A DNA stretch of 27,149 nt from Desulfobacterales bacterium (GCA_025453995.1 JALOPH010000013.1:1-27149), one strand, 5' to 3'; numbered from the stretch's first letter, positions 2,978-23,584 are shown. Notes: generated by a model from the sequence alone, not told the origin. Numbers and translations are program-made.

Positions 2978-3819
2978 GGTTTGTCTCCTTTATCATCCGG
3001 TTTCGTCAGTGGAAACGCCTGGATATTGATCTGTATCACCTGATCGGAACTTTCATCCGTGGCGAACTCCTTGAGGATGTCTTTTCTGAAATCGGCGATT
3101 TTCTGTTTGAGTTCAGCCATCCTGTTCTTTTTCATGCTGATGGTGAGCGCCGTGATATCCCTGGTTTTAGCCGGATGTCGGGTGATGGATTCTTCGGCCA
3201 GCCGGATCATTTCCTTGTGAAAATTGGTAATCAGCAAAGAAGAGACTTCCGGCCCTGTGGAAATCAGGGAATCGGTCTGCTGCCATTGCCCCTGTTCATC
3301 CTTGAGAATCAATCCGAGGGCCTCAAGGCGTCGCAGTGCGGTTTCAACGTCTTTTGTCCGGACCGCCGGGTAGAGCTTTTCGGCGATTTGTTCGGCCGTC
3401 ATTTTCCGGTCGCCAAATACCACCAGTTCGCGGATAACCGGCAGGTACCATCTGGAAAAGTATTCATACCGGGCGGTTTCGATGGTTTTGATCTTTCCGT
3501 GGGATTTAGCGGCAATCATCTTCCGGTAATAATGATCCTGCTCGGCGTGCTCCGTTGCCTGATTCATAAATACCAGGTTTTCAAAAAAATCCCGCTCAGG
3601 CTTTTTGAGTTTGAAGCCCCTGGCGATGCCGGCAACGCTGGTGTTGGTGAGGTTTCGCTCACCTTCCATCACGAGCTTGAGGAAATTGGGGGATGAGAAT
3701 CCTGCAAGCCGGGAAAAATACCGATAGGAATAGGACGGCATGGTTTCTTTTTTGAAGGCAAACATGTCCTTCAAAAATTCCCGGTAGTCGATGTAATCAA
3801 ATATGCAGGGTCTATTCAT
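2974..3819 (-). CDS. TIGR02147-like protein (Fibrobacter 'second paralogous family' type, putative HTH-like N-terminus); function unknown
   Basis: 281-aa ORF. N-terminus MNRPCIFDYIDYREFLKDMFAFKKETMPSYSYRYFSRLAGFSSPNFLKLVMEGERNLT matches my memory of the TIGR02147 signature (dYR.fL.d....kK...SyR.FS...G.sSp.fl..V..GkRnLt). K/E-rich, protein-like composition. The overlapping plus-strand ORF 2707-3696 is R/G/F/C-rich junk. Confidence 0.75.
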   Translation of the reverse strand: MNRPCIFDYIDYREFLKDMFAFKKETMPSYSYRYFSRLAGFSSPNFLKLVMEGERNLTNTSVAGIARGFKLKKPERDFFENLVFMNQATEHAEQDHYYRKMIAAKSHGKIKTIETARYEYFSRWYLPVIRELVVFGDRKMTAEQIAEKLYPAVRTKDVETALRRLEALGLILKDEQGQWQQTDSLISTGPEVSSLLITNFHKEMIRLAEESITRHPAKTRDITALTISMKKNRMAELKQKIADFRKDILKEFATDESSDQVIQINIQAFPLTKPDDKGDKP

Positions 3820-3849
3820 AAAATTTTTTATTCATAAAAAATTTTAATT

Positions 3850-3880
3850 GGCGCCGGAGGCTTTTATGGCCCCCGGCGCC
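3850..3880. terminator. GC-rich hairpin (ggcgccgg-a-ggc / ttttatg loop / gcc-c-ccggcgcc) between the 3895-5874 gene and the 2974-3819 gene; T-rich on both sides (bidirectional terminator-like)
   Basis: Read directly: 8-bp plus 3-bp stem with a 7-nt loop. Plus strand is followed by ttttgtttc; minus strand is followed by aattaaaatttttt. Confidence 0.5.
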
Positions 3881-3894
3881 TTTTGTTTCTACCC

Positions 3895-5874
3895 TTACTC
3901 CATCAGATCAAGGGTGATGAACGGCTCGGCAATGTTGTCGATGGGAGCGGCCTTCACCGTAAATGATGTCAGGGAGTAAATATGATCATCAATAAACACG
4001 CCCCTGTACCAAGACGGATAATACATCCAGTTGTCCATATCATTCTCATCCCAGACGAACATGGAGATGCGCCCCAGGAGCTCAAAGTCATACGCATCGG
4101 TCAATCGGTATACATACAGGCCGTTAAAGGTGTTCCTGCCCCAGTCTTCGGGGTTTTGCGGATCAGCTATTTCATTAAGATTGACCGGCAGGGCCAGCAG
4201 GTTTTTCTCCGGCCAGAAGGCAACGGCCTTGTGATTGTAAAGGGCTTCTGAATATGTGCCCCGGTCGCCGATGATTTCACTGTGGAGCAGTTTGGGGTTG
4301 GCAAAATCGCTGGTGTCGAAGATGGAGAGCTGCATTCCGCCGACTTTAACAATATCGCCCTCTGCTTTTGTGTCCTGTCCGATGGCCAGCAGAATATCGT
4401 CATTGATCGGGTGCAGGTATGTGGAGAAACCCGGGACTTTGAGCTCGCCGACAACAGTCGGATTTTGGGGAACAGACAGGTCGAGGGTAAAGAGCGGATC
4501 CACCTGGACAAAAGTCACTAAAAATCCCCTGTCGCCCATAAACCTCGCGGAATAAAGGCGCTCGCCGGGGGCGAGATCCCGGATGCTGCCGATAACAGTT
4601 AAGCTGCCGCCGTTGTTTTGCAGGCAGAACACATGGTTTCTGGAAGTCTGATCCCAGGTATATCCGGTGGTGGTGGCGATCCGGAGCACGCCTTCATACT
4701 CGCCCAATGAGAACTGGTTGAGGATTTCGCCGTCCACCTTGCCGCCCGCCGCATAGGTGACGGTGCTGCCCAGGTCAAACTTGTGAATCTGAGTTTCAAA
4801 GGTGGGGTTGCTCCAAGTGAAAAACCCGTTATCATCATAGGTGTCTTCGGAATAATGGTAAATAGTGGAAACCAGGTACAGGGATTCCGTAGACGCATAC
4901 ACATTGTGGACATCGGCGATAAAGCCGGTGCTGGTGAAATCAGCCGCAGGGTCAGCCATGTTGATGGTGATAATCGATACCATGGTGCCGCCGCCATCTT
5001 CCTGGGGTCGGATGAAATCCTTTGTCGCCACGGCCCGTCCTTCTTCCACCAGCACGCCGTTTGCGTCGTTGATGTTGTATGACGGCACGAAATCGTCCAG
5101 GGTCAGAGACGCAAGGGTTTGGTTGTTGGCCTCGGTGACCGATTTCTTGTCCTCTTCGGAGCCGTCATACCAGATGTCCAATGGCGGGAGGCTGGGCATG
5201 AACTGGGTGATTACATGGAGATTGCCGCCGGTGATCCGGGAGGCCACCAAATATCCATCCACCTGGATGTCCTTGATGGTTTCAGGAGACATCGGATTGC
5301 TGACATCCACAATCAGCATTCCGGCTTTTTCCTGGTAGGGAATCCAGTAAGGCATGCCCACGCCGATTTTTTCAACATCCGTGTAAACGATCGGATCTTC
5401 ATACCCGTTGGACGGCCGATACAGAATCACGAGTTTGTTGTCATAAAGATAAATGGAATCAATCCACCCGCCGGCTTTCACATAGCTGACCACGTTCATG
5501 GAATCGGCAGGGGTTGCGGAAACGATGCGGACATCGCTTTCGTTTGCGATGTACAGATATTCGCCGTCTGTTTTAATCATGTCGGATTCATCCACACCGG
5601 CTTCCTGAAGGTTGGTGGAGGAAAAACCCTTGTCCGCGCCGGCGTCTGATTCGGGCGCTGCGTTATCCATCATATAATAACGGACAGGTGTCGGGGTTGC
5701 GCTGTTGGCATACTGGTCTTTAAGGTAAGACGTCAGCGCTTCATCGGATTTAAAACTCTTCGCTTTGGGGCTGGATGACGAACTGTCGTCATTGCAACCA
5801 ATGACGGCCAGGAAAGCTGCCAGCATAATCGCCAGGAAGTATATGTGATTGTCGCGGCTCCTGAGGGTTTTCAT
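3895..5874 (-). CDS. Secreted beta-propeller domain lipoprotein (paralog 2 of 2)
   Basis: 659-aa ORF. N-terminus MKTLRSRDNHIYFLAIMLAAFLAVIGCNDD with lipobox VIGC. Collinear similarity to the 1010-2977 product throughout, e.g. GFIADVHNVYASTESLYLVST vs GFIADIHHAYASTQNIYLIST, and shared nucleotide stretches such as caggtttttctccggccagaaggc at 4199-4222 and 1295-1318. Carries an extra insert (FVWDENDMDNWMYYPSWY) near the C-terminus. Confidence 0.8.
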   Translation of the reverse strand: MKTLRSRDNHIYFLAIMLAAFLAVIGCNDDSSSSSPKAKSFKSDEALTSYLKDQYANSATPTPVRYYMMDNAAPESDAGADKGFSSTNLQEAGVDESDMIKTDGEYLYIANESDVRIVSATPADSMNVVSYVKAGGWIDSIYLYDNKLVILYRPSNGYEDPIVYTDVEKIGVGMPYWIPYQEKAGMLIVDVSNPMSPETIKDIQVDGYLVASRITGGNLHVITQFMPSLPPLDIWYDGSEEDKKSVTEANNQTLASLTLDDFVPSYNINDANGVLVEEGRAVATKDFIRPQEDGGGTMVSIITINMADPAADFTSTGFIADVHNVYASTESLYLVSTIYHYSEDTYDDNGFFTWSNPTFETQIHKFDLGSTVTYAAGGKVDGEILNQFSLGEYEGVLRIATTTGYTWDQTSRNHVFCLQNNGGSLTVIGSIRDLAPGERLYSARFMGDRGFLVTFVQVDPLFTLDLSVPQNPTVVGELKVPGFSTYLHPINDDILLAIGQDTKAEGDIVKVGGMQLSIFDTSDFANPKLLHSEIIGDRGTYSEALYNHKAVAFWPEKNLLALPVNLNEIADPQNPEDWGRNTFNGLYVYRLTDAYDFELLGRISMFVWDENDMDNWMYYPSWYRGVFIDDHIYSLTSFTVKAAPIDNIAEPFITLDLME

Positions 5875-6010
5875 GATCGTGGCTCCTTTAATTTTTTGGG
5901 TTAATGAATCCGAAAATGAGTTCTTGTCTTTGCCATGGCTTTAATTTTGATTTGAATTTATCAGATTTTTTTTTGGCAAAGCAAGGGAGATTTGATGGTT
6001 TTATTCAATA

Positions 6011-6032
6011 AATGTATTCAATTGAATACATT
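6011..6032. promoter_or_regulatory. 22-bp perfect palindrome aatgtattcaa|ttgaatacatt inside an ~85% AT intergenic block (5875-6125), flanked by three direct TTATTCAA copies; candidate operator for the minus-strand beta-propeller gene, about 140 bp upstream
   Basis: Palindrome and flanking TTATTCAA repeats read directly. The surrounding region is far more AT-rich than the rest of the window. Confidence 0.35.
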
Positions 6033-6202
6033 ATTCAACAAAATTATAAAAAAATATTTAATAAAATCAAATATATATTTTAATAATCTTATTTGATTAT
6101 TTAAATTTTTTTATTAATTAAGAATACAGCAACCCTTCTCCGGTTGGCAAGGAGGAGGCGTGTCATGTGAACATGCGGTGCGTCGAGGCGTCCCATACAG
6201 AA

Positions 6203-6721
6203 TTAAAGGTCCGGTTGGATGGCGTTTGAAGATCCCTTTTTCAATTCGGCCGCGTATGTTTTCAGGAGCGACCGGCTTCTCGGGTTTTCGTCAATCATGG
6301 GATAGAGATCGATCATCTCTCGCTTCACGTGAACTTTGAGCTGTTTGAAAAATATATCAAGACTGGCGATCATGTTTTGATTAAGGACTTCAGGGCTGAG
6401 ATCGGCGTTTTTTGAAAGTTCAATGATCGTTTGAAGCTGTTTTTCAAGGGCGCCATGATCTTTTTGAAGATTCATGACCATCAGGGTGGATTCAAAGGCG
6501 GCTGCGCCCAGAATCGCGGCAGGGAAAAAAACCAGCTCTTCAATTTCAAAATGCCTGAGAAGATCTTTCTTTAAGAAATTTACAAAGTCATTGAGTCCCT
6601 TGATAAATTCCCTGTCTTTCTTTTTGACATTTTCAAAAAACACGATGACATAATCGGTGATGATTTTATGTTCCCGTGACAGTTTGGCAATCATATTATT
6701 GATGTTATCCATATCAGCCAT
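6203..6721 (-). CDS. Hemerythrin-like (HHE cation-binding) domain protein
   Basis: 172-aa ORF with two H-F/x-x-x-E-E-x-x-L/F-P-like motifs (LLRHFEIEELVFFP and HVKREMIDLYPMI), characteristic of hemerythrin/HHE domains. Confidence 0.7.
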   Translation of the reverse strand: MADMDNINNMIAKLSREHKIITDYVIVFFENVKKKDREFIKGLNDFVNFLKKDLLRHFEIEELVFFPAAILGAAAFESTLMVMNLQKDHGALEKQLQTIIELSKNADLSPEVLNQNMIASLDIFFKQLKVHVKREMIDLYPMIDENPRSRSLLKTYAAELKKGSSNAIQPDL

Positions 6722-7029
6722 TTCTACCTCTCGTTTTAAACAGCAAGTGTATGTTTATCGCTGGATAAGTTTAACCAGCTTGATTAGTTGGAAATATATA
6801 AAACAACCATATAGGAATCCCAAAGAGCAATCAAGATAAAAGGCACAAGCGTCCATGCGGGTTGAAATCTGCCGGGGTTTAAAAAATTGGACAACTGGAG
6901 GGGAAAGCGGTATGGTCAGGCTGAAAAAAATTGAAGTGCCTAAAGAGAAGGACTTTTGATCAATTTATAAAAAAAGACGGAGCGAATCGGCTCATCCATT
7001 TCAGGCACGCCGATCGTGACGCCCGGATT

Positions 7030-12726: not shown

Positions 12727-14973
12727 ATGTCTCGGGCGGAAACTGAAGTGAATATTGACTGGAAACAAGTTTTTGAGGCGATCAGCGATCTGGCCTTGAT
12801 AGTCGATTCAGATCATCGGATACTTTCAGCGAATCGGGCAGTTGAAAGGATCACGGGGTTGACGTGTCGTGAAATCATCGGCCGGAAATGCTATGAAATA
12901 TTCCATGGCAAGGATCAGCCTCCGAGCGATTGTCCTCATAAGAAGTTGATCTCATCTGGCCGGCCGGAAGCGAACCAGATGGAAATGGAATTTCTGGGAA
13001 GCGTTTATTTGGTGACCGTTACGCCGATTTTTGATGCATCCGGGAAAGTCATACAATCGATCCATCTGGCAAAAGATATTACCGCGCAAAAAAAATCCGA
13101 AGAAAATTATCGCCTGCACTTCATGCAGGTCAATGACGTCATTTATTCAATTGACCCTGAATTAAAAGTGCTCACTGTTTCACCATCGGTTGAGAAGCTG
13201 TTGGGGTATACACCGGATGAGCTTATCGGCCGGCCTTTTCATGAACTCAATGTTCTGGCGCCCGAGTATTTTGAAAAGGCATTTTCCGATATCATGTGCG
13301 TTTTGTCGGGCAATAAGATTTCCGCATCCCTTTATGAATTCATTGCAAAGGATGGGACCAGAAAATTCGGCGAGGTCAGCGGCGCCCCATTAATCCTTGA
13401 CAATAAAGTGACAGCAGTGGTTTCAGTCGCCCGGGATGTTTCCGATCGAAAAAGAATAGAAGAAAACATGAAGAGGGAATCTGATTTTTCAGAATCGCTC
13501 ATCAACAGCCTCCCAGGCGTCTTTTATTTGTTTGATGAAACGGGCAAATTTTTAAGATGGAATAAAAATTTTGAAAATGTTTCAGGATACACTGCTGATG
13601 AAATTGCCCGTATGAGCCCGGTGGATTTTTTTTCAGGCCTGGAAAAAGAATACATAGCCGGACAGATTCAAAAAGTATTTATCAACGGTCGCGCAGATGC
13701 CGAAGCTTATATTGTTTCAAAACTTGGGAACAAGACGCCGCATTACTTCACCGGTTTCCTGATTCATATTGATGAAAAGCCTCATTTGATAGGGATGGGA
13801 ATTGATATCACCGATCAAAAAAAAATGGAAGCCCAGATTCAGCAGACGCATAAACTGGAATCCATCGGCACCCTTGCGGGCGGGATTGCCCATGATTTCA
13901 ATAATATCATAGGTATCATCCTCGGCAGCGCCGAATTGGCCATACATAATGTCCCTGCTGGCAATGCGGCCCGGATGAATTTAGAAACAGTCCGCACCGC
14001 CTGTTTCAGAGCAAGGGATTTGGTAACACAAATACTCAGATTTTCGAGCAAAAGCGAACACAAACGGGAACCTGTTCTGCTCAACTTGATTATCACGGAA
14101 TCCTTGAAAATGCTTCGATCCTCCATTCCCGCCAGCATCGACATTCAGACGAATATTGACGCCACCCCCCGCACAATTTTGGCAGACCCTGTGCAAATTC
14201 ACCAGGTGATCATCAATCTATGCACCAACGCCGTCCATGCGATGAAAGAAAAAGGGGGCGTCATCGAGGTCCATTTGACGGAGATATCTTTAGATAAAAA
14301 CGCGGTCCGACAGTATCCTGGATTGCCCTCCGGGCAATATATGCAGCTTTCAGTTCGGGATACCGGCCAGGGGATTGACCCTAAAATACTTGACCGGATT
14401 TTCGATCCCTATTTCACGACAAAAAATATCGGTGAGGGATCGGGCATGGGACTGGCTGTGGTTCATGGGATTGTTAAAAACCATGGAGGGGCGATTACGG
14501 TTTACAGTGATTCTGAAAAGGGAAGCACGTTTAGAATTTTATTCCCGAGGGTTAAATCAGATCCTTTGACCGAAACAGAAAGATCGATAGAAGCGCCCAG
14601 GGGAAAAGACCGTATCCTGTATGTCGATGATGAGCCAGCCATGGCGGAGATCGGAAAGCAAATGCTGGAATACCTTGGGTATCGGGTGGAGTCTAAAAAC
14701 AATCCCATCGAGGCATTGGAACTGTTTAAGGCTGATCCACACGGGTTTGACCTTGTTATGACCGATATGACCATGCCGCAGATGACCGGCAAAGCTTTGG
14801 CCCAGGCGATGATGCGCATCCGTCCGGAAATTCCTGTAATTATCAACAGCGGTTACAGCGATCAAATGGACGAAAGAAAAGCAAGGGAAGCGGGTATCGC
14901 GGCATATATCTTGAAACCGCTAAATATGACGCAGCTGGCTGAAATCATCAGAAGCGTTCTGTGTAAAAAATGA
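12727..14973 (+). CDS. Hybrid sensor histidine kinase/response regulator with N-terminal PAS domains
   Basis: 748 aa. HisKA H-box HKLESIGTLAGGIAHDFNNIIGIILG, HATPase_c G-boxes (DTGQGIDP, GEGSGMGLAVV), C-terminal receiver domain (ILYVDDEPAMAEIG...DLVMTDMTMPQMTG...INSGY). At least two PAS-like blocks N-terminal; the first carries C-x4-H...C-P-H (KCYEIFHGKDQPPSDCPHKK). Confidence 0.9.
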   Translation: MSRAETEVNIDWKQVFEAISDLALIVDSDHRILSANRAVERITGLTCREIIGRKCYEIFHGKDQPPSDCPHKKLISSGRPEANQMEMEFLGSVYLVTVTPIFDASGKVIQSIHLAKDITAQKKSEENYRLHFMQVNDVIYSIDPELKVLTVSPSVEKLLGYTPDELIGRPFHELNVLAPEYFEKAFSDIMCVLSGNKISASLYEFIAKDGTRKFGEVSGAPLILDNKVTAVVSVARDVSDRKRIEENMKRESDFSESLINSLPGVFYLFDETGKFLRWNKNFENVSGYTADEIARMSPVDFFSGLEKEYIAGQIQKVFINGRADAEAYIVSKLGNKTPHYFTGFLIHIDEKPHLIGMGIDITDQKKMEAQIQQTHKLESIGTLAGGIAHDFNNIIGIILGSAELAIHNVPAGNAARMNLETVRTACFRARDLVTQILRFSSKSEHKREPVLLNLIITESLKMLRSSIPASIDIQTNIDATPRTILADPVQIHQVIINLCTNAVHAMKEKGGVIEVHLTEISLDKNAVRQYPGLPSGQYMQLSVRDTGQGIDPKILDRIFDPYFTTKNIGEGSGMGLAVVHGIVKNHGGAITVYSDSEKGSTFRILFPRVKSDPLTETERSIEAPRGKDRILYVDDEPAMAEIGKQMLEYLGYRVESKNNPIEALELFKADPHGFDLVMTDMTMPQMTGKALAQAMMRIRPEIPVIINSGYSDQMDERKAREAGIAAYILKPLNMTQLAEIIRSVLCKK

Positions 14974-15444
14974 GAGCGGTTTGCAGTAGATGGCTTTACC
15001 GTCTCCGGAAGCATAAAAATCCTTGAGCACAGCCTCCAGCCGGTATCCGCATTTTTCATAAAACGCCCGGGTGGGGTCATACTGGGGACGCTCAGATGTG
15101 TCCACATACACGCGAGTACCGCCGGCTGCTGCAATGCGCTGTTCAGCTTGATTCATTAAATCCCGGCCCAATCCTTTACCCTGAAAATCCGGGTCTACCG
15201 CAATCCAATAAAGATCATAGCTGGCCACTGTGCAGGGGATGGGTCCGAAGCAGGCATACCCTGCCAGGCGGTCATCCTGTTCGGCCATGATAAAATGATA
15301 CCCGCTTTCCGCCCCGTGAGAAAGACGGTCTTCCGCCAGTTCAACGGCAATATCGACTTCATAGGGATAAAAAAAACCCGTGGACTCAGCCAACCGGCGG
15401 ATGTTTTCAGGGTCTTGCGAAAAGATTTCATATCGGAAAATCAT
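14920..15444 (-). CDS. GNAT family N-acetyltransferase (last gene of the ATP-grasp operon; candidate AblB/YodP-like beta-lysine acetyltransferase)
   Basis: 174 aa. Acetyl-CoA-binding motif QGKGLGRDLM and GNAT fold motifs (YWIAVDPDF, AFYEKCGY). Start overlaps the upstream ATP-grasp gene stop by 4 bp. The 3' end overlaps the convergent histidine kinase gene by 54 bp. Confidence 0.85.
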   Translation of the reverse strand: MIFRYEIFSQDPENIRRLAESTGFFYPYEVDIAVELAEDRLSHGAESGYHFIMAEQDDRLAGYACFGPIPCTVASYDLYWIAVDPDFQGKGLGRDLMNQAEQRIAAAGGTRVYVDTSERPQYDPTRAFYEKCGYRLEAVLKDFYASGDGKAIYCKPLSFFTQNASDDFSQLRHI

Positions 15445-16448
15445 AGCCGCCCGCCTCTCGCATCCAGGAGGATGCGCTCAATGACCTCGGCATACGTGAT
15501 ATCGCCCTGGATGGCCGCGGCAGCGAATCCGCCGTCCGGATTGATACAAGGATTGGCGTTGATCTCCAGAATCCACGGCTGCCCTTTGTGATCCACCCGC
15601 AGATCAATGCGGGCATATCCGGAGAGGGCAAACTCCTTCCAGCATCGCCGCGCCAGGTCAATCAGGGTTTTTACCAGAGGCCCGTCTTTTTTGGTCAGCT
15701 TAAAATCCCGGGGGGTGTTTTGATATTCAAAAGAGTCCTCCACCCATTTGGCGTTGTAGCAGACGATTCTGGGCTTTTCCGGCGCAAAACCTTCAAACAG
15801 GATTTCCGCAGCCGGCAGCACTTCCGGACCATTGAGCCCGCCCAGCACCGAGAGGTTAAACTCCCGGCCGTCGATGAATTTTTCCGCAAAACAATCGCCG
15901 TTTAAAAATTGAGCATGCTCTTTGAGCAATGGCAAGAGTTCCTTTTCCGTTGCAGTGACCAACCCTTTTTGATGAACGCCGATGGAGGCGTGTTCCCACA
16001 CGGACTTGATGATCCAAAGGCTTTCTGCCTTATCTTCCGGGCTTGCTGAATTTGGTCGGATTCTATGCGGATAGGGACCGATCCAGGGCGCTGTGGGCAA
16101 ACCGACCGCTTCCATGCATCTTTTGGCCATGACTTTATTTGAGGTGATCATCATGGCTTCGGCCGTATTGCCGGTATAAGGTATTTTCCAGGCGTCTAAG
16201 CAAAAAGGGACCAGATGGATGAGCCGGCCCTGTCCTTCCATGGACTCCATGAGGTTAAACACCATTTCAGTTTTAGATTCCAGCAATTGCCCGCGAAGCT
16301 TTTCCAGATCAAGACCGCATGAGATCTGGGCCACTTCATGGCCAAGGACTTCAAGGGCTTCTTTGACCGATGCCGCCTGATATAAAACATCTTTGGCATC
16401 CAGCGAATCCGCATCACCGACAATATCATGGATGATGGAGATCTTCAT
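15441..16448 (-). CDS. D-alanine--D-alanine ligase family ATP-grasp enzyme (second of a tandem pair)
   Basis: 335 aa. Ddl-like N-domain (MKISIIHD...VFNLMES.EGQGRLIHLVPFCLDAWKIPYTGN), ATP-grasp central/C-domains (EKFIDGREFNLSVLGG..., ARIDLRVDHKGQPWILEINANP). 4-bp overlap with both neighbours. Confidence 0.85.
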   Translation of the reverse strand: MKISIIHDIVGDADSLDAKDVLYQAASVKEALEVLGHEVAQISCGLDLEKLRGQLLESKTEMVFNLMESMEGQGRLIHLVPFCLDAWKIPYTGNTAEAMMITSNKVMAKRCMEAVGLPTAPWIGPYPHRIRPNSASPEDKAESLWIIKSVWEHASIGVHQKGLVTATEKELLPLLKEHAQFLNGDCFAEKFIDGREFNLSVLGGLNGPEVLPAAEILFEGFAPEKPRIVCYNAKWVEDSFEYQNTPRDFKLTKKDGPLVKTLIDLARRCWKEFALSGYARIDLRVDHKGQPWILEINANPCINPDGGFAAAAIQGDITYAEVIERILLDARGGRL

Positions 16449-17446
16449 GGGCTTTTGCTCCTTATCCGCATGGACGCCGATTCGATGATTTTTTCAATCA
16501 GGGTCACATACGGTATGCCCAGCTGATTGCAGATAATGGGCAGGTCCGAATGCTCGGGATGAATGCCGGCCAGCGGGTTGACTTCCATGAACAGGGGCTT
16601 TCCGTTTGCGTTGCACCGGATGTCGATTCTTCCGGCATCCCGGCATCCCAGAACCCGCCAGGCCGCCAGAGAAATGGCCTCTGCTTGGGCCACGGTCGGA
16701 TCTTCCAGGGCGCGTGCCAGACGGTAAATCACCAATTCTTCGCATTTTTCCTTGTTGATATATGAATATACACCTGGTTCGGCGGTCTCATTCAGATGAA
16801 CTTCTACGGTTCCCAGTGCTTGGGCCGCTTGACCGGTGCCGAGAATGCCCACGGTAAATTCACGCCCTGACAGATAGGGTTCCACCAGGGCGGGCTGGCG
16901 GTATTCTTCAATCCATCTCCTGCAAGCGGCTTTGAGTTTGGACGGGTCGTTGATGATGGAATCCGGAGAAGTTCCTTTGCCGGTGCCTTCCGCCACAGGC
17001 TTGACGAAATATGGCGGATCAAAATCAATGGCATCGATATCCGCATCGGTTTCCACGACCTGAAAATCTGATGTGGGAATTCCGGCGTCCCGGATTACCC
17101 GTTTGGTCATCCCTTTGTGAAGGGTTAAACTCATGACCATGGGATCGGAAAAGGTATAGGGAATTTCATAGAGATCCAGAAGAGAGGGAACCTGGGCTTC
17201 CCTGCCAATGCCGTGCAGCCCTTCGGCGATGTTAAACACCAGATCCCAGCGTTTTCCTTTGACCAGAGCCGAGGCCAGCTGCTTGGCATGCCCGATGCGT
17301 TTTGTCCGGTGCCCCAGGGCGCTTAGCGCGTTTTCGATGGATACCACCGTGTCTTCCCTGTCGAATTCAGCGGTTTCAAGTTCGGAATACCCCATGGCCA
17401 GGTATTCCGAACGCAGATCATACGTGAGTCCGATGGTCATTCCCAT
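16445..17446 (-). CDS. D-alanine--D-alanine ligase family ATP-grasp enzyme (first of a tandem pair)
   Basis: 333 aa. IGLTYDLRSEY..., VFNIAEGLHGIGREAQVPSLLDLYEIPYTFSD, EPYLSGREFTVGILG, GRIDIRCNANGKPLFMEVNPLAG are Ddl/ATP-grasp hallmarks. Confidence 0.85.
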   Translation of the reverse strand: MGMTIGLTYDLRSEYLAMGYSELETAEFDREDTVVSIENALSALGHRTKRIGHAKQLASALVKGKRWDLVFNIAEGLHGIGREAQVPSLLDLYEIPYTFSDPMVMSLTLHKGMTKRVIRDAGIPTSDFQVVETDADIDAIDFDPPYFVKPVAEGTGKGTSPDSIINDPSKLKAACRRWIEEYRQPALVEPYLSGREFTVGILGTGQAAQALGTVEVHLNETAEPGVYSYINKEKCEELVIYRLARALEDPTVAQAEAISLAAWRVLGCRDAGRIDIRCNANGKPLFMEVNPLAGIHPEHSDLPIICNQLGIPYVTLIEKIIESASMRIRSKSP

Positions 17447-17492
17447 AGCGATTATATCCTGATTGATTAAAAAAACCGATTATCGATTTTTT

Positions 17493-17521
17493 TTCATACG
17501 ATATTTGGCGCCAGGGTTCAA
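17493..17521 (-). promoter_or_regulatory. Candidate sigma-70 promoter for the ATP-grasp/GNAT operon (minus strand: TTGAAC - 17 nt - TATGAA), downstream of the kamA terminator
   Basis: Hexamers read on the reverse complement. Plus-strand coordinates: gttcaa 17516-17521 and ttcata 17493-17498. Speculative. Confidence 0.25.
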
Positions 17522-17551
17522 GGAAATGTGAAACCCTTAAATCAAAAAAAT

Positions 17552-17590
17552 GCGCCCCTCCGTCCTGGATATTCCAGGACGGAGGGGCGC
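17552..17590. terminator. Strong intrinsic terminator: perfect 17-bp inverted repeat gcgcccctccgtcctgg / atatt / ccaggacggaggggcgc with A/T runs on both sides (bidirectional), located between kamA and the ATP-grasp genes
   Basis: Read directly. GC-rich 17-bp stem with 5-nt loop. Minus strand (the transcribed one) is followed by attttttt; plus strand is followed by attcttatttt. Confidence 0.7.
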
Positions 17591-17609
17591 ATTCTTATTT
17601 TAAAACCAA

Positions 17610-18920
17610 TTATCTTGTTGAACAGGAACCGTCGGGATACCTGAACAGCTTGTTCTCATAATTTTTCAGCAGCAGGTCGCCGTTTTCATAACCTGTCACA
17701 TAATCGGGCATCAGCGGAATTTTGCCGCCGCCGCCGGGCGCATCCACCACATAGGTGGGTACGGCATAGCCGCTGGTGAATCCCCGCAGCCCCCGGATGA
17801 TCTCAAGCCCTTTCTCAATGGGCGTCCGGAAATGGATAGATCCCGTGATCGGATCACACTGGTAGAGGTAATAGGGCCGCACCCTCATTTTCATGAGATG
17901 GTGCACCAGCGCTGTCATGGTCTCGACCGAATCGTTGATCCCTTTGAGCAGCACAGACTGGGACCCTAAAGGAATGCCCGCGTCCGACAGCATGGCGCAA
18001 GCCCGATAGGCTTCGGGCGTGCACTCGTCGGCATGGATGAAGTGCAGGCTCATCCAGAGCGGGTGATATTTTTTGAGAATCTTGACCAGCTGCGGCGTAA
18101 TCCGCTGGGGGAGCACGGCCGGCACCTTGGTCCCAATGCGCACAATTTCCACATGGGGGATCTGGCGGATCTGGGCGAGAATCCAGTCCAGCCGGTCATC
18201 GCCGATCATCAAAGGGTCGCCGCCGGAAAGCAGCACATCCCGGATTTCACGATGGGACCGGATATACTCCATGGCCGCTTCCAACCGGGAACGGCTGGGA
18301 TTGATGCCGCCGTGTCCGACCACCCGGGATCGGGTGCAATACCGGCAGAAGGTGGAGCAAAAATCTGAAAGCAGCAGCAGAACCCGGTCCGGGTATCGAT
18401 GCACCATGCCGGGAACAGGGCTCTGGCAATCTTCTCCCAGGGGGTCGTCAGCCTCTCCCGGCATTTTGATCAATTCTTCCGGCGTCGGAATGACACTGCG
18501 GCGCAGGGGCTGTTCCGGGTCGGTTGGGGAAACCAGACTCAGGTAATAAGGTGTAATCCCCAGCGGCAGCTTTCCGTCATAATTATTGAGCGCCCATTGT
18601 TCGGGTTCGGAAAGCTGGATCATGGTTTCAAGCTGGGAGGCGGTCCGGATGCGGTTGCTCACCTGCCAACGCCAATCATTCCAGAGCTTGGCCGTGACAC
18701 TTGGATAAAAACGTTTGCGGAATGAACGAACAAAAGGATTGGATACCCCTGTTTTATGGGTGGGGAACCGGACGATTTTTCCCGGTTTGGCCAGTGGGGC
18801 GGCGGGATATTGGGTTATTGTAACGGGTGAAGAACTCGGAGGTTCTTCTTCACATTCCTCGATCGGACTGGGAGAGGTGTCTCTCAGCCGATTTTGAAAC
18901 GAGGCTGTGACTTCTGTCAT
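17610..18920 (-). CDS. kamA: Lysine 2,3-aminomutase (KamA/AblA family radical SAM enzyme) with an unusually long Pro/Ser/Glu-rich N-terminal extension
   Basis: 436 aa. Radical SAM CxxxCxxC (CSTFCRYCTRS), WNDWRWQVSNRI, ITPYYLSL, DVLLSGGDPL, RPYYLYQCD, VVDAPGGGGKIP are near-identical to my recollection of Clostridium LAM. Both Asp residues that bind the lysine epsilon-amine (QCD..., VVDAPGGGG) are conserved, which argues for lysine rather than glutamate as substrate. Confidence 0.9.
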   Translation of the reverse strand: MTEVTASFQNRLRDTSPSPIEECEEEPPSSSPVTITQYPAAPLAKPGKIVRFPTHKTGVSNPFVRSFRKRFYPSVTAKLWNDWRWQVSNRIRTASQLETMIQLSEPEQWALNNYDGKLPLGITPYYLSLVSPTDPEQPLRRSVIPTPEELIKMPGEADDPLGEDCQSPVPGMVHRYPDRVLLLLSDFCSTFCRYCTRSRVVGHGGINPSRSRLEAAMEYIRSHREIRDVLLSGGDPLMIGDDRLDWILAQIRQIPHVEIVRIGTKVPAVLPQRITPQLVKILKKYHPLWMSLHFIHADECTPEAYRACAMLSDAGIPLGSQSVLLKGINDSVETMTALVHHLMKMRVRPYYLYQCDPITGSIHFRTPIEKGLEIIRGLRGFTSGYAVPTYVVDAPGGGGKIPLMPDYVTGYENGDLLLKNYENKLFRYPDGSCSTR

Positions 18921-19208
18921 CGATGCGCTCCTTTTTTTAAAAAAAAATTAATCAACATCAGGTCCGCAACCCGTCTGCATTTTCGCTGTGCCTGATACTT
19001 GCGACTATAAAGATTTGTTTTCAAATTTCAATAAAATAATCATCATGAATGGAAAAAAATTTTTATAAAGATGACAGTGTGTCAATATGGTAAACCGTCG
19101 TCCATCGTGATGTACACTGCAATTATAATTTTTGACGTATCGGGAGATGTTTTGTTGTCAGGAAAAAAATCCGGTGATAAAATTAAAATAAACCGGTTAA
19201 GGAATCAA

Positions 19209-20153
19209 ATGATGAGCCCCTCGAAAAATATCATCGGAAACAACCCCGGCCTGATAAATGTTCAAAAGCAGGCTGAAGCATTTGCCACAGCCCCGCGTTC
19301 CATAATCATCCGCGGGGAACGGGGAACCGGCAAGGAGATGCTTGCGTTGTTCATCCACAGCAAAAGTCCGTTTTCCTCAGGGCCTTTTGTGGCTGTCAAT
19401 TGCGCTGTATTCAATGATGAACTTCTTGCCAGCGAGTTGTTCGGCCATGAGAAAGGCGCGTTTACCGGCGCAGTTTCCCAGCGCCGCGGATGTTTGGAGA
19501 AGGCCGCAGGCGGCACCCTGTTTTTCGACGAGGTGGGCAACATGTCGCTTCGTTTTCAGGAAACCCTGCTGCGGGTTCTGGAAACAAAAAAATTCGAGCG
19601 TCTTGGCGGGCGGGAGACGCTCACCGCCGATGCCCGTTTTATTTTCGCCACCAATGCGGATTTGGACACCATGATGGCCCAGGGGAATTTCCGCAGGGAC
19701 CTCTATGACCGCATCGCATTTGTGACCCTCACGCTCCCGCCGCTGAGGCAGCGGCGCGAAGACATCCCCCTGCTGATAGCGCATTTTACGCAAATGCTGG
19801 CGCGGGAAATTCCCAATTTTGAGCCCCGGCGATTTTCAGCAGAAGCGGTTCACCAGATGGTTCAGTATTATTGGCCGGGCAATATCCGGGAGCTCAAAAA
19901 CGTTGTGGAGCGGCTTTTGCTGCAGCCGGGAGAGGACATGGTGCTCACGTCGGATCTTCCTCTGGAAATCACCGCCGCCGCGCCGGCCGGAAAAACATTT
20001 AATGAAAAGGTGGAAGCATTCAAGAAACATCTTGTATTGAGCGCCTGGCTGGATTCCGGGAAAAACCAGAAAAAGGCGGCTGACAAGCTGGGCATCAGCT
20101 ACGATCAGTTCAGGCATTATTTCCGGAAGTTTGAATTAAACCTTTTTTCCTGA
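19209..20153 (+). CDS. pspF: Sigma-54-dependent transcriptional activator lacking an N-terminal regulatory domain (PspF-like). The ORF opens at 19071, but homology and the SD support 19209.
   Basis: AAA+ sigma-54 activator motifs: IIIRGERGTGKE Walker A, GAFTGA (ELFGHEKGAFTGA), LFFDEVG Walker B, C-terminal HTH (KKAADKLGISYDQFRHYF). N-terminus MMSPSKNIIGNNPGLINVQKQAE resembles E. coli PspF. aagga SD sits 5 nt upstream of 19209. The gene immediately precedes a pspA homolog. Confidence 0.85.
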   Translation: MMSPSKNIIGNNPGLINVQKQAEAFATAPRSIIIRGERGTGKEMLALFIHSKSPFSSGPFVAVNCAVFNDELLASELFGHEKGAFTGAVSQRRGCLEKAAGGTLFFDEVGNMSLRFQETLLRVLETKKFERLGGRETLTADARFIFATNADLDTMMAQGNFRRDLYDRIAFVTLTLPPLRQRREDIPLLIAHFTQMLAREIPNFEPRRFSAEAVHQMVQYYWPGNIRELKNVVERLLLQPGEDMVLTSDLPLEITAAAPAGKTFNEKVEAFKKHLVLSAWLDSGKNQKKAADKLGISYDQFRHYFRKFELNLFS

Positions 20154-20180
20154 TAAAGCGTCAGGAAAAAAGTAAATATT

Positions 20181-20212
20181 GGTGTTTTCCACCTTTTCAG
20201 GTGGAAAACACC
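20181..20212 (+). promoter_or_regulatory. Perfect 13-bp inverted repeat ggtgttttccacc-ttttca-ggtggaaaacacc: candidate PspF upstream activator sequence (about -130 from the predicted sigma-54 start) and/or pspF terminator
   Basis: Read directly, 28 nt after the pspF stop. No T-run follows, which weakens a terminator role. A second imperfect IR lies at 20234-20259 (aacgatt...aatcgtt). Confidence 0.45.
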
Positions 20213-20300
20213 ATCAATTTCTGATAGTATGATAACGATTTCGATACGACCGAATCGTTTAAGTCATTGATATTCAAGACCTCGCTAAGAATTACTCTTT

Positions 20301-20316
20301 TGGCATGGGATTTGAT
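20301..20316 (+). promoter_or_regulatory. Candidate sigma-54 (-24/-12) promoter for pspA: TGGCAT-gggat-TTGAT
   Basis: GG and the -12 element have canonical spacing. -24 TGGCA is perfect; -12 is TTGA rather than TTGC (E. coli pspA also has a non-consensus -12, as I recall). It sits about 50 nt upstream of a GGAGG SD and the pspA ATG at 20367. Confidence 0.4.
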
Positions 20317-20366
20317 TATTGAATATTTAAACATCAAATCCCAATGCTAAAAGAGGAGGTAACACC

Positions 20367-21074
20367 ATGACGATTATATCACGCATCAAACGCATCATTT
20401 CCGCAAACATCAACAACATGATCGAAAAGGCGGAAGACCCGGAATCCCTGCTCAAGGAATTGATCCGGGAAATGGACGACAATATCATCAAGCTCAGAAA
20501 TGAAATTGTCAAATCCATCGCATCGGAAAAACGCCTTGCCCGGCAAGTTGAGGACGTTCAAAAGAAAATTCAGACATGGCAGGAGAACAGCGAAAAGGCG
20601 GTCCGGGATGGCAATGACGAGCTGGCCCGCAAAGCCCTGGGACGAAAACTGGCCGAAGAGCGCAAGCTGCCGGAACTTTCGGCGCAGCATAACCGGGCGC
20701 TGGAGTCCGGCAAAACCTTGAAAGACCAGCTCAGACTGCTCGAAGACAAGGTCCAGGATGCCCGCCGGAAAAATGAAATCCTGGTTGCCCGGAAGCGAAG
20801 CGCCCAGGCGCACCAGTCCCTGCTGACCGCCACCCAGAATTTCGCGGCGGCCGCCCGAAAGAGCGACGCGCTGCTGGCTGAAGCCCATTTGATCTCCCCC
20901 GGCTCATTTGAATCCCTGGAGGATGAGGTGTTGCGGCTTGAAACAGAGGCCGAGGCCCTGCGGGAAGTTATGCATCAGGAGCCTTCTTTGGAAGAGGTGT
21001 TTGAAAGGTCAAAAACCGATGAAGCCATCGAGCGGCAGCTTCAGGAGTTGAAGAAAAAGGTTATAAGAGGTTAA
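20367..21074 (+). CDS. pspA: Phage shock protein A (PspA/IM30 family)
   Basis: 235 aa. N-terminus IISANINNMIEKAEDPESLLKELIREMDD closely parallels E. coli PspA ([29 protein letters not shown]). Coiled-coil composition throughout. Perfect GGAGG SD 9 nt upstream. Confidence 0.9.
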   Translation: MTIISRIKRIISANINNMIEKAEDPESLLKELIREMDDNIIKLRNEIVKSIASEKRLARQVEDVQKKIQTWQENSEKAVRDGNDELARKALGRKLAEERKLPELSAQHNRALESGKTLKDQLRLLEDKVQDARRKNEILVARKRSAQAHQSLLTATQNFAAAARKSDALLAEAHLISPGSFESLEDEVLRLETEAEALREVMHQEPSLEEVFERSKTDEAIERQLQELKKKVIRG

Positions 21075-21234
21075 AACGGTTTCAAGGGTTCACGGTTCAA
21101 CGGTCAACAAATCCCTTTAATTTTGAACCGTGAGCGGTGAACCTCGGAACCAATATATCCTCAAAAGAAACACACGGTATTCTTTACATTATTTTATTAA
21201 GACCGGTTAAATTTTTTAACAGGAGCTTAAAAAC

Positions 21235-21810
21235 ATGGAAGCGTTTTACAACAGCCTGAGTCCGGTTCAGAAATTTTTTCTCTTCAGCGCCATGGTGGGA
21301 GGCGCGATATTTGTCATCCGGATGATCATGATGCTGGCCGGAGCCGCGGGTCATGAACTCCATGACGGCCAGTTCGACTATTCAGACACCCACGCGGACG
21401 CCGACGCCAGCTTCAAGCTCTTTTCCCTCCACGGCCTGACCGGATTTTTCATGATGTTCGGCCTGGTAGGACTGGGCTTGTCCCGGCAGCGATTGATCCC
21501 GGACCTGTTCGCCGGAGCCTTGGGCGTTCTGGCCGGGCTGGCCACGGTCTGGGTCATCGGAAAGGTCTTTGCCGGGATGATCAAGCTTCAGTCTGACGGG
21601 ACCTTGCGTTTGAGTGATGCCGTGGGGCATCAGGGAAAGGTCTACCTGACCATCCCGGCCGGCGGCGCAGGCCAGGTCCAGGTGGGGTTCCAGGGCCGGC
21701 TGATGATTTATGATGCCATATCGGCCAATAAAGAGGTTATTAAGACCGGTGAGCCGGTGGTGGTGATCGATGTGGTGGGGGGAAATACATTGGTGGTCGA
21801 AAAAGTTTAA
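21235..21810 (+). CDS. NfeD-like / YqiJ-like membrane protein (N-terminal TM helices plus C-terminal OB-fold beta domain), flotillin partner
   Basis: 191 aa. Two to three TM segments (FFLFSAMVGGAIFVIRMIMMLAGAA, LTGFFMMFGLVGLGL, LFAGALGVLAGLATVWVIG). C-terminus GKVYLTIPAGGAGQVQVGFQGRLMIYDAISANKEVIKTGEPVVVIDVVGGNTLVVEKV matches the NfeD OB-fold pattern. Immediately upstream of a flotillin gene, as in the E. coli yqiJ-yqiK pair. AGGAG SD present. Confidence 0.7.
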   Translation: MEAFYNSLSPVQKFFLFSAMVGGAIFVIRMIMMLAGAAGHELHDGQFDYSDTHADADASFKLFSLHGLTGFFMMFGLVGLGLSRQRLIPDLFAGALGVLAGLATVWVIGKVFAGMIKLQSDGTLRLSDAVGHQGKVYLTIPAGGAGQVQVGFQGRLMIYDAISANKEVIKTGEPVVVIDVVGGNTLVVEKV

Positions 21811-21876
21811 CATTTGTGCCGGGATTGGAATCCCGACTAACAATTGTTTCTTTTAATTCAATCGATTTGAACCGCA

Positions 21877-21969
21877 GAATGTCGAACAAGGAATAATGAA
21901 TGTCGAAGTGAAAAATACCTTATCCCTACTTCATGATTCGACATTCCTTGTTCGATATTCGATATTTAT
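21877..21969. repeat. Cluster of GAATGTCGAA decamer repeats: two direct copies (21877-21886, 21898-21907), one inverted copy (21937-21946) and degenerate ttcgatattc copies (21951-21969), about 50-130 bp upstream of the flotillin start
   Basis: Read directly in the yqiJ-like/flotillin intergenic region. Candidate operator array for the flotillin gene. Confidence 0.5.
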
Positions 21970-22009
21970 AGGGTTTTTAAATTTGACATAAAGCATAGGA
22001 GGTCTTGTC

Positions 22010-23584
22010 ATGGTATATTTCGGATTGGCCATCGGCGCGTTTGTCTTTGTATTTATGGCAACTGTACTGATCCTGGCGTCGCGATACAAGAGATGCCCAT
22101 CGGATCAGATCCTCGTCATCTACGGAAAAGTGGCCCAGGGCCGATCCAGCCGGTGCATGCACGGCGGCGGGGTGTTTGTTTGGCCCCTGATCCAGGATTA
22201 CGCATACTTGAGTTTAACCCCCATCACCATCAGCATCCCGCTTCAAGGCGCCCTCTCGTTCCAGAACATCCGTATTAACGTGCCCAGCACTTTCACCGTG
22301 GGTATCAGCACGGACCCCAATATCATGACCAATGCCGCCGAGCGGCTGCTGGGCATTCCGTCTCAGAAAATCGAGGACATGGCCAAAGAAATCATCTTCG
22401 GCCAGCTCCGCCTGACGGTGGCGTCCCTGACCATTGAGCAGATCAACCAGGACAGGGAAAGCTTTCTGGAGTCCATCCGCAAGAACGTGGAGCCGGAGCT
22501 TAACAAGATCGGGCTGTATCTCATCAACGTGAACATCACCGATATCACCGATGAATCCGACTACATCGAGAGCATTGGCAAGAAAGCCGCAGCCGAAGCG
22601 CTGAACAAAGCCAAGGTGGACGTGGCGGAACAGGTGAAGCTGGGCGCTATTGGCGAGGCCGAGGCGGTCAAGGTAAAAGAGGTTCGGGTTGCTGAGAATG
22701 TGGCGGAATCTGAAAAGGGAAAGAAGAAAGCCCAGGCGGACCAGCGGATCTATGTGCAGGCCCAGGAAGCCGAAGCGGTTGCCGGTGAAAACAAGGCCAA
22801 GGCCGATATTGCCAATGCCGAAGCCATCCTTGAAATTCGAAAAGCCGAGGCCATGGCTGGATCTGAAAAAGGGAAAAAGAAGGCCATGGCCGATCAGCGG
22901 ATCTATGTGCAGGCCCAGGAAGCCGAAGCGGTTGCCGGCGAAAACAAGGCCAAAGCCAATATCGCCGACTATGACGCGGAACTGGCCGTCAAGCAGGCCG
23001 CCGCCCTCCAACGCGGAGAAGTGGCCAAACGTGAAGCCACGGTGGAAATCCAGAAAGCCCAGTATCGGGCCGAGCAGGAACGGCTCAACGCTGAAGAAAT
23101 CGTTCTCAAGGAAATTGAAAAACGCAAGATCGAGATTGCCGCTGATGCAGAGGCCGAGCGCATCCGGCGGGAGGCCAAGGGCGAGGCCGACGGCGTGCTC
23201 TTGAAATATGAGGCCGAGGCCAAAGGCCTTCAGAAACTATTGGACGGCAAGGCCGCCGGATATGAATCTCTGGTCAAAAGCTGCGGCGGGGACGCCAAGG
23301 CCGCAGCCACCCTGCTGATGATTGAAAAAATTGAAGATATCGTCAAACACCAGGTGGAAGCCATCCGCAATCTTAAAATCGACAAGATCACGGTATGGGA
23401 TTCAGCTTCCGGAGATGGAAAAGGATCATCAACAGCCAATTTTGTATCCAGCCTGATAAAGAGCGTGCCGCCTTTGCAGGACATTTCCGCCATGGCCGGC
23501 GTCGAATTACCCGCCTATCTGGGGAAAATGAAGGAAACGGAACAACCGGTTCCATCCAAGGGAGGGAATGCGGAAAAGAAATGA
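22010..23584 (+). CDS. Flotillin family SPFH/band-7 protein (YqiK/FloT-like) with extended Ala/Glu/Lys-rich coiled-coil containing a tandem duplication
   Basis: 524 aa. N-terminal TM (FGLAIGAFVFVFMATVLILAS) and SPFH core (ILVIYGKV...GGGVFVWPLIQDYAYLSLTP...FTVGISTDPN). Long EA-rich helical region; C-terminal flotillin tail. Minus-strand ORF 22214-23011 is G/F/L-rich antisense junk. Confidence 0.9.
   Translation: MVYFGLAIGAFVFVFMATVLILASRYKRCPSDQILVIYGKVAQGRSSRCMHGGGVFVWPLIQDYAYLSLTPITISIPLQGALSFQNIRINVPSTFTVGISTDPNIMTNAAERLLGIPSQKIEDMAKEIIFGQLRLTVASLTIEQINQDRESFLESIRKNVEPELNKIGLYLINVNITDITDESDYIESIGKKAAAEALNKAKVDVAEQVKLGAIGEAEAVKVKEVRVAENVAESEKGKKKAQADQRIYVQAQEAEAVAGENKAKADIANAEAILEIRKAEAMAGSEKGKKKAMADQRIYVQAQEAEAVAGENKAKANIADYDAELAVKQAAALQRGEVAKREATVEIQKAQYRAEQERLNAEEIVLKEIEKRKIEIAADAEAERIRREAKGEADGVLLKYEAEAKGLQKLLDGKAAGYESLVKSCGGDAKAAATLLMIEKIEDIVKHQVEAIRNLKIDKITVWDSASGDGKGSSTANFVSSLIKSVPPLQDISAMAGVELPAYLGKMKETEQPVPSKGGNAEKK
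22709..22960 (+). repeat. In-frame intragenic tandem duplication (period 153 bp = 51 aa) within the flotillin coiled-coil region
   Basis: Copy 1 at 22709-22861, copy 2 at 22862 to about 22960. The core of about 65 nt (cagcggatctatgtgcaggcccaggaagccgaagcggttgccggNgaaaacaaggccaa) is near-identical. Protein repeat SEKGKKKAQADQRIYVQAQEAEAVAGENKAKA appears twice. Confidence 0.85.

Follow-up and report, generated by a model that had tools for sequence, protein, structure and literature searches.

What do two ligases related to D-alanine-D-alanine ligase (Ddl) make when their genes lie between those of a lysine 2,3-aminomutase (LAM) and an N-acetyltransferase? The question is raised by a contig of a Desulfobacterales bacterium (GCA_025453995.1 JALOPH010000013.1:1-27149; this whole stretch of 27,149 nucleotides (nt) is called here the window), whose minus strand carries four open reading frames (ORFs) encoding KamA, two ATP-grasp proteins called here AG1 and AG2, and a GNAT acetyltransferase (Table 1). 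A preliminary description of this DNA had proposed a pathway to a beta-lysine-containing peptide or a modified compatible solute. Our analysis leads us to propose, with a probability of roughly 0.6, that the four genes specify a cytoplasmic small-molecule pathway whose product contains beta-lysine and is N-acetylated, with the size of a dipeptide, a tripeptide or a short oligomer. The ORF list gave the same coordinates for the four genes as the preliminary description, and profile searches against Pfam and NCBIfam assigned the four proteins to the KamA family of radical SAM enzymes, to Dala_Dala_lig_C (AG1 and AG2) and to the GNAT family. As previously described, AG1, AG2 and GNAT are chained by 4-bp overlaps (AG1/AG2 at 16445-16448 and AG2/GNAT at 15441-15444), but the chain does not extend to kamA, which is set apart from the ligases by a 163-nt spacer.

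The AG1 motif was scanned in one genome per GTDB species, and at least 589 of the motif-bearing stretches encode a relative of AG1. The locus comparisons reported here rest on the best 80 of these at least 589 AG1-like stretches, from species-level genomes, and gene order was counted by tblastn mapping in those loci that had enough flanking sequence. In 65 of the 69 informative loci the gene directly upstream of AG1 is kamA, and downstream of AG1 are found AG2 in 58 of 61 loci and the GNAT in 55 of 61. Where KamA, AG1, AG2 and GNAT occur together, they lie on a single strand and in a constant order. The carriers belong to the Desulfobacterota, the Planctomycetota, the Acidobacteriota (Thermoanaerobaculia) and the Krumholzibacteriota. 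Hundreds of bacterial species, representing at least four phyla, keep this gene set together; the co-location of the four genes goes far beyond chance. The preliminary description had allowed that the ATP-grasp genes might sit beside kamA by coincidence; in fact they travel with it, the order being kept in most of the 80 genomes and across the four phyla.

Within the set, conservation is highest for AG1, whose linkage to kamA is also the tightest. Median identities to the proteins of the window are 65% for AG1, 62% for KamA, 57% for GNAT and 48% for AG2, and AG1 retains 59-77% identity across phyla. Two close relatives, with AG1 identities of 86% and 81%, carry the identical minimal four-gene set among different flanking genes. 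When a further conserved neighbour was sought by de novo ORF clustering of the locus flanks, no other gene family was found in more than five loci; this clustering was noisy (antisense ORFs, fused clusters) and served for that question only, the architecture counts having been redone by tblastn.

The products of these genes are also joined in single polypeptides. AG1 and AG2 are fused in P0242 and four other proteins of ~640-730 amino acids (aa), and single proteins of ~500-545 aa unite AG2 with the GNAT (11 of the mapped loci; P0241 and four others). Between kamA and AG1, 27 of the 80 loci encode a Cys-rich protein of ~172 aa resembling YkgJ (CxxCxxCC; weak match to PF03692), which is fused to AG1 in P0079 (YkgJ part at residues 1 to ~175) and in L061; it may serve KamA or AG1 as an Fe-S or Zn partner. 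The last gene of 33 loci encodes a 751-aa fusion of a GNAT-like domain, an HDAC domain and the GNAT (for example L010:10028-12283), and two more loci have an N-GNAT-HDAC fusion with the GNAT as a separate gene. The best PDB matches of the HDAC domain are small-molecule acetylpolyamine amidohydrolases (APAH; 6PHR, 9GKZ and 3Q9B, E 8e-73 to 9e-60). No YkgJ-like or HDAC gene was detected by tblastn anywhere in the window, which carries the minimal form of the cluster and keeps, of the triple fusion, only the C-terminal GNAT. These natural fusions indicate that the ligase, GNAT and accessory parts belong to one pathway. The joining of a second GNAT domain and an APAH-type deacetylase domain to the GNAT further suggests that an acetyl group is put on and removed from an aminoalkyl side chain, and the APAH-type domain of the sister clusters points to a small aminoalkyl substrate rather than a protein.

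The KamA of the window is 54% identical to the Clostridium subterminale LAM (PDB 2A5H) over 360 ungapped residues (E 3e-140), and its best NCBIfam model is that of the AblA lysine 2,3-aminomutase, with 494.8 bits. This score lies just below the equivalog cut-off of 525.4 because of a C-terminal truncation, only positions 3-360 of the 417 of the model being matched; the KamA-family model TIGR00238 gave 346.7 bits, above its cut-off of 199.2. The models of glutamate 2,3-aminomutase, arginine 2,3-aminomutase and EpmB scored lower (430, 390 and 249.8 bits, with a cut-off of 369.3 for EpmB). The three cysteines of the CxxxCxxC motif (C188, C192 and C195) and the equivalents of R134, D293, D330 and K337 of 2A5H (R197, D356, D393 and K400, respectively) are invariant in all 67 cluster-linked KamA sequences. 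In 2A5H we take R134 to be the ligand of the alpha-carboxylate, D293 and D330 those of the epsilon-ammonium group, and K337 the lysine that binds pyridoxal 5'-phosphate (PLP). The retention of both epsilon-amine-binding Asp residues, already claimed for the window, holds throughout these 67 sequences, and the glutamate-type or other aminomutase that had been envisaged as an alternative gave way to an enzyme of the lysine type. Lysine is a well-supported predicted substrate of KamA; glutamate is not.

The cluster-linked enzymes also depart from the clostridial protein. The equivalent of C268 is S, N, D or T, and the tails past the LAM-366 equivalent are mostly of 3-38 residues, the two longest (70 and 74 residues) having no Cys; in the clostridial LAM, C268 and the cysteines of the C-terminal domain presumably form a Zn site. 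An N-terminal extension of ~75 aa bears a conserved acidic 'EEPP' patch. As far as the alignments go, cluster-linked KamA is a distinct short subfamily that lacks the C-terminal Zn/Cys domain. Lysine fermentation was considered as a context for this enzyme and set aside, since the window contains no kamDE, kdd, kce or kal-type gene and the loci conserve none.

The type of KamA bears on the possibility that beta-lysine is destined for a protein, the ATP-grasp enzymes attaching it to a factor of the EF-P/EfpL type or to a ribosomal protein and a RimI-like GNAT acetylating the protein. A KamA-family enzyme, EpmB, does feed the beta-lysylation of EF-P, and EfpL is reported in Planctomycetota, Acidobacteria and Desulfobacterota, phyla that also carry the cluster (PMC13602936). 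The KamA studied here, however, is of the Clostridium LAM/AblA type and falls short of the EpmB cut-off, and the neighbourhood of the cluster conserves neither efp nor epmA nor any gene for a target protein. The best named NCBIfam match of the GNAT is RimI, although below cut-off, and the high conservation of AG1 would suit a housekeeping role; against this, the Ddl fold normally takes small substrates, as do the APAH enzymes to whose type the fused deacetylase belongs. Modification of a protein is accordingly an improbable function of these genes.

AG1 and AG2 both fail the NCBIfam Ddl model NF002378, with 156.1 and 104.8 bits against a cut-off of 243, and the alignments of the ligases to their best PDB matches (E 7e-21 and 1.6e-15) begin around residues 54-76. 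The AG2 family comprises 923 clusters at 50% identity. An AlphaFold2 model of AG1 (predicted local distance difference test score, pLDDT, of 88) retrieved Ddl enzymes as top Foldseek matches, with template modelling (TM) scores of 0.74-0.8 and 24-26% identity. The pockets were read by profile alignment to E. coli DdlB, of which residues 61-305 were verified and the first 60 are provisional. Across 81 AG1 and 74 AG2 sequences, the equivalents of K144, E180, K215, R255, D257, E270 and N272 do not vary, with the sole exception of AG2 K148, found in 73 of 74. Since the ATP-grasp catalytic residues are essentially invariant, both ligases should be active, and they are predicted to be catalytically competent. 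By contrast, the positions that govern D-Ala specificity are changed. That of Y216 is E233 in AG1 (72/81) and W235 in AG2 (74/74); that of S281-L282 is S300-D301 in AG1 (81/81) and A/G306-G307 in AG2; and that of S150 is T155 in AG1 and A154 in AG2. These replacements would make the AG1 pocket more acidic and the AG2 pocket more hydrophobic.

AG1 and AG2 share with Ddl and VanA the fold and the residues for ATP, Mg and the acyl-phosphate, but differ from them in their tandem arrangement, their remodelled N-terminal domain, the replacement of Y216, S150, S281 and L282, their sub-cut-off scores and the absence of a cell-wall gene context. On this comparison they are distant Ddl relatives and not ordinary cell-wall Ddl paralogs, the outcome that the preliminary description had named as damaging to its proposal. 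A role in the cell wall, in which the two enzymes would make an alternative peptidoglycan dipeptide or a cross-bridge with beta-lysine, is highly improbable for the same reasons, even though the Ddl and Van ligases are the nearest characterised relatives of both proteins. No mur, fts or fem gene and no transporter is conserved nearby, and neither an acetyl-CoA-dependent GNAT nor an APAH domain would have an evident role there.

The GNAT fails the AblB equivalog TIGR03827, with 19.1 bits against a cut-off of 205.1, and by this measure is not AblB; it is weakly similar to SpeG. An ortholog is present in the PDB as entry 2R7H (E 2e-48 over 153 of the 174 residues), a structural-genomics structure without an assigned substrate whose title reads 'putative D-alanine N-acetyltransferase of GNAT family'. 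This name appears to be a guess from the neighbouring Ddl-like genes. When 2R7H was sought through guessed Dde_ locus tags, the sole match, Dde_3047, was an unrelated phosphatase. In the window, the 3' end of the GNAT gene overlaps a convergent gene for a PAS/hybrid histidine kinase (12727-14973) by 54 nt, at 14920-14973; in close relatives the GNAT is shorter (165-167 aa) and the kinase gene is not at that position.

The result with the AblB model also speaks to the simplest account of the locus, according to which KamA and the GNAT form the ordinary N-epsilon-acetyl-beta-lysine osmolyte pathway and the two Ddl paralogs are unrelated bystanders. A lysine 2,3-aminomutase and a GNAT are indeed the partners in the known AblA/AblB pairing, as given in PMC3543383 citing Pfluger 2003, but no other members of the cluster are as conserved or as tightly linked as the ligases, which in many genomes are physically joined to the GNAT and to one another. 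Synteny and fusions largely refute the bystander role, and we give this account hardly any credence.

We infer the substrates, the order of the steps, the product and its role from the observed gene content, residue conservation, synteny and fusions. In the proposed pathway, KamA, with its radical SAM chemistry and PLP, would convert L-lysine to beta-lysine, AG1 and AG2 would each use ATP to make one amide bond by way of an acyl-phosphate, and the GNAT would acetylate a free amine from acetyl-CoA. The acidic acceptor pocket of AG1 (E233 and D301) and its particularly close tie to kamA make free cationic beta-lysine its probable substrate. For AG2, with its frequent fusion to the GNAT and its more hydrophobic pocket (W235 and A154), an acetylated intermediate is the probable substrate. 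The product might serve as a compatible solute, as a polyamine-like cation or in another role, and the broad range of habitats does not single out salt stress. A bolder version, which we hold only tentatively and as rather unlikely, is that the product is a short cationic beta-lysine peptide or oligomer of a hitherto unknown metabolite class, its charge set through acetylation and deacetylation by the GNAT and APAH domains. In anaerobic Desulfobacterota, Planctomycetota, Acidobacteriota and Krumholzibacteriota such a product would stand in for polyamines or protect against stress, and the tandem ligases would give the Ddl fold a new substrate class (beta-amino or diamino acids).

The kamA-AG1 spacer (17447-17609, minus strand) has a minimum free energy of -71.6 kcal/mol (z = -10) and contains an intrinsic-terminator hairpin (Table 1). 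The hairpin is kept in the close relatives L083 and L084, where base changes on both arms preserve the pairing. Further along the spacer, the TTGAAC and TATGAA hexamers of a putative internal promoter are invariant in the window, L083 and L084, while the sequence between them varies; a transcription start is predicted near 17486, and a sigma-70 consensus scan did not pick up this site. The spacer would thus hold a terminator or attenuator of kamA, then an internal promoter for AG1-AG2-GNAT, and in the lineage of the window kamA and the ligase-GNAT operon seem to be separate transcription units. In other lineages kamA and AG1 abut, with 4 nt between them in a Syntrophobacter-like contig, or the YkgJ-like gene occupies the gap. 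An Rfam search that covered the spacer and the region upstream of kamA revealed no riboswitch or leader; at E <= 1 it returned spurious hairpin matches only. Two further ideas were discarded: a repeat-element origin of the spacer hairpin, its stem sequence being unique within the window, and a sigma-54 promoter beside the divergent pspF-like gene, since the GG/GC spacing judged by eye does not fit.

Several observations weigh against the proposed N-acetylated beta-lysine peptide pathway. Its parts are separable: a few Planctomycetota loci encode KamA, YkgJ and AG1 without AG2 or GNAT (L070, L072 and L079; L074 is without YkgJ too), and L063, L065 and L078 encode AG1, AG2 and GNAT without an adjacent KamA. 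A substitute enzyme upstream of AG1 was looked for in the KamA-less L063 and L078, and unrelated genes only were found. In the window a strong terminator separates kamA from AG1, so that the four genes would not form a single operon there. The source habitats given in the record titles are marine and saline but also include soil, peat and groundwater, so that a purely salt-driven osmolyte fits poorly and the compatible-solute role suggested in the preliminary description gains no support from them. Cultured carriers of the cluster exist, among them Desulfosarcina variabilis, whose version includes an APAH-domain fusion, Syntrophobacter fumaroxidans, Thermogutta terrifontis and Desulfatitalea alkaliphila. 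The pocket assignments depend on an alignment to an E. coli DdlB sequence whose first 60 residues are provisional. Finally, neither a product nor an experiment in any host was found for this cluster in the literature.

The separable loci suggest two modules, KamA/YkgJ/AG1 and AG2/GNAT/APAH. The former, alone in some genomes, implies that one ligase suffices there for some product, as might be expected if one or both ligases iterate, in the manner of RimK and cyanophycin synthetase, to yield poly- or oligo-beta-lysine, a polycationic and polyamine-like or storage compound whose chain charge or length the GNAT and APAH domains would control. The acidic AG1 pocket would suit such a cationic substrate, and the accessories are of a polyamine type (the APAH-type domain and the weakly SpeG-like GNAT). 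Ddl-type enzymes, however, are single-turnover dipeptide ligases, while the known iterative ATP-grasp enzymes are those of the RimK and CphA groups, to which AG1 and AG2 showed no similarity. The two ligases are moreover distinct and non-redundant and differ in their pockets, which points to two defined steps, and we regard iteration as unlikely.

The peptide pathway proposed here can be compared with systems already known. The AblA/AblB enzymes of methanogens and the KamA/YodP enzymes of Bacillus likewise combine a lysine 2,3-aminomutase with an acetyl-CoA-dependent GNAT; unlike AblA/AblB, the cluster adds two ATP-grasp ligases as its conserved core and has a GNAT that is not AblB-like, and its KamA differs from AblA in having an N-terminal extension and no C-terminal domain. 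In the synthesis of the N-acetylated dipeptide osmolyte N-acetylglutaminylglutamine amide (NAGGN), carried out by Ngg and AsnO, the enzyme Ngg unites N-acetylation and peptide-bond formation, sometimes in one polypeptide, as PMC8070244 relates in citing Sagot 2010. A GNAT and ATP-dependent non-ribosomal peptide-bond formation are common to both systems, and the AG2+GNAT fusions provide a parallel; the cluster differs in that its ligases are of the Ddl type and that beta-lysine, not glutamine, is its presumed building block. The window contains no AsnO or other amidotransferase, and the loci conserve none. In the EpmA/EpmB system acting on EF-P, too, an ATP-dependent ligase receives its beta-lysine from an aminomutase of the KamA family, but EpmA is paralogous to lysyl-tRNA synthetase and not an ATP-grasp enzyme, and the KamA of the cluster fails the EpmB model; no gene resembling an aminoacyl-tRNA synthetase was found in the window or conserved near the cluster. 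By analogy, the closest functional precedents would be the AblA/AblB pathway and Ngg. The preliminary description knew of no characterised pathway of this architecture, and a full-text literature search likewise found no description of kamA-AG1-AG2-GNAT; a Pelobacter paper concerns ordinary ablAB. The enzyme families are all known, and what would be new is their combination, the action of Ddl-type ligases with beta-lysine, and the predicted product.

Table 1. Genes and predicted transcription signals of the cluster in the window, with examples from related loci
Feature	Position	Strand	Description
kamA, short-form lysine 2,3-aminomutase	17610..18920	-	436 aa; Pfam Radical_SAM + LAM_C
AG1, Ddl-fold ATP-grasp ligase	16445..17446	-	333 aa; Pfam Dala_Dala_lig_C
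AG2, second Ddl-fold ATP-grasp ligase	15441..16448	-	335 aa; Pfam Dala_Dala_lig_C
GNAT N-acetyltransferase	14920..15444	-	174 aa; Pfam Acetyltransf_1/7/10
Intrinsic-terminator hairpin	17549..17593	-	perfect 20-bp stem + T-run, ~16-20 nt past the kamA stop codon
Putative internal promoter for AG1-AG2-GNAT	17493..17521	-	TTGAAC-17 nt-TATGAA
Promoter-like site upstream of kamA	19004..19031	-	TTGAAA-16-TATAGT; sigma-70 consensus match only, 10/12
kamA-AG1 spacers of relatives	L083:5868-6000; L084:5548-5707		
YkgJ-like gene examples	L007:7511-8029; L072:7474-8004		

The remainder of the window holds other genes. Divergent from kamA, positions 19071-23584 encode a PspF-like sigma-54 activator, PspA/IM30, a 191-aa protein without family match and an SPFH/flotillin protein, an envelope-stress-like group, with a hairpin between pspF and pspA at about 20289-20361. 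The adjacency of PspF and PspA looks incidental, because both are missing beside the cluster in L083 and L084. On the minus strand at 1010-5874, two paralogous proteins of ~655 aa with beta-propeller domains (PF09826) flank a DUF4423 gene. The GC content falls to 0.38 at 6001-7000, around a hemerythrin-like gene (6203-6721) and its flanks, and is about 0.50 in the rest of the window.

In bacteria and archaea beta-lysine is known as an intermediate of fermentation, as the precursor of N-epsilon-acetyl-beta-lysine, as a modifier of EF-P and as a building block of some actinomycete antibiotics. If our proposal is true, the cluster would represent a fifth beta-lysine route, by way of ATP-grasp ligases, and it is widespread in environmentally dominant anaerobes. 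The label 'D-alanine--D-alanine ligase' on such genes is probably wrong and could mislead the annotation of cell-wall or vancomycin-resistance functions; the pathway would provide a function for these mislabelled ligase genes and for the orphan structure 2R7H. A metabolite new to science, of the compatible-solute or polyamine-like kind, could further come to light, and the ligases could be useful for beta-peptide biocatalysis.

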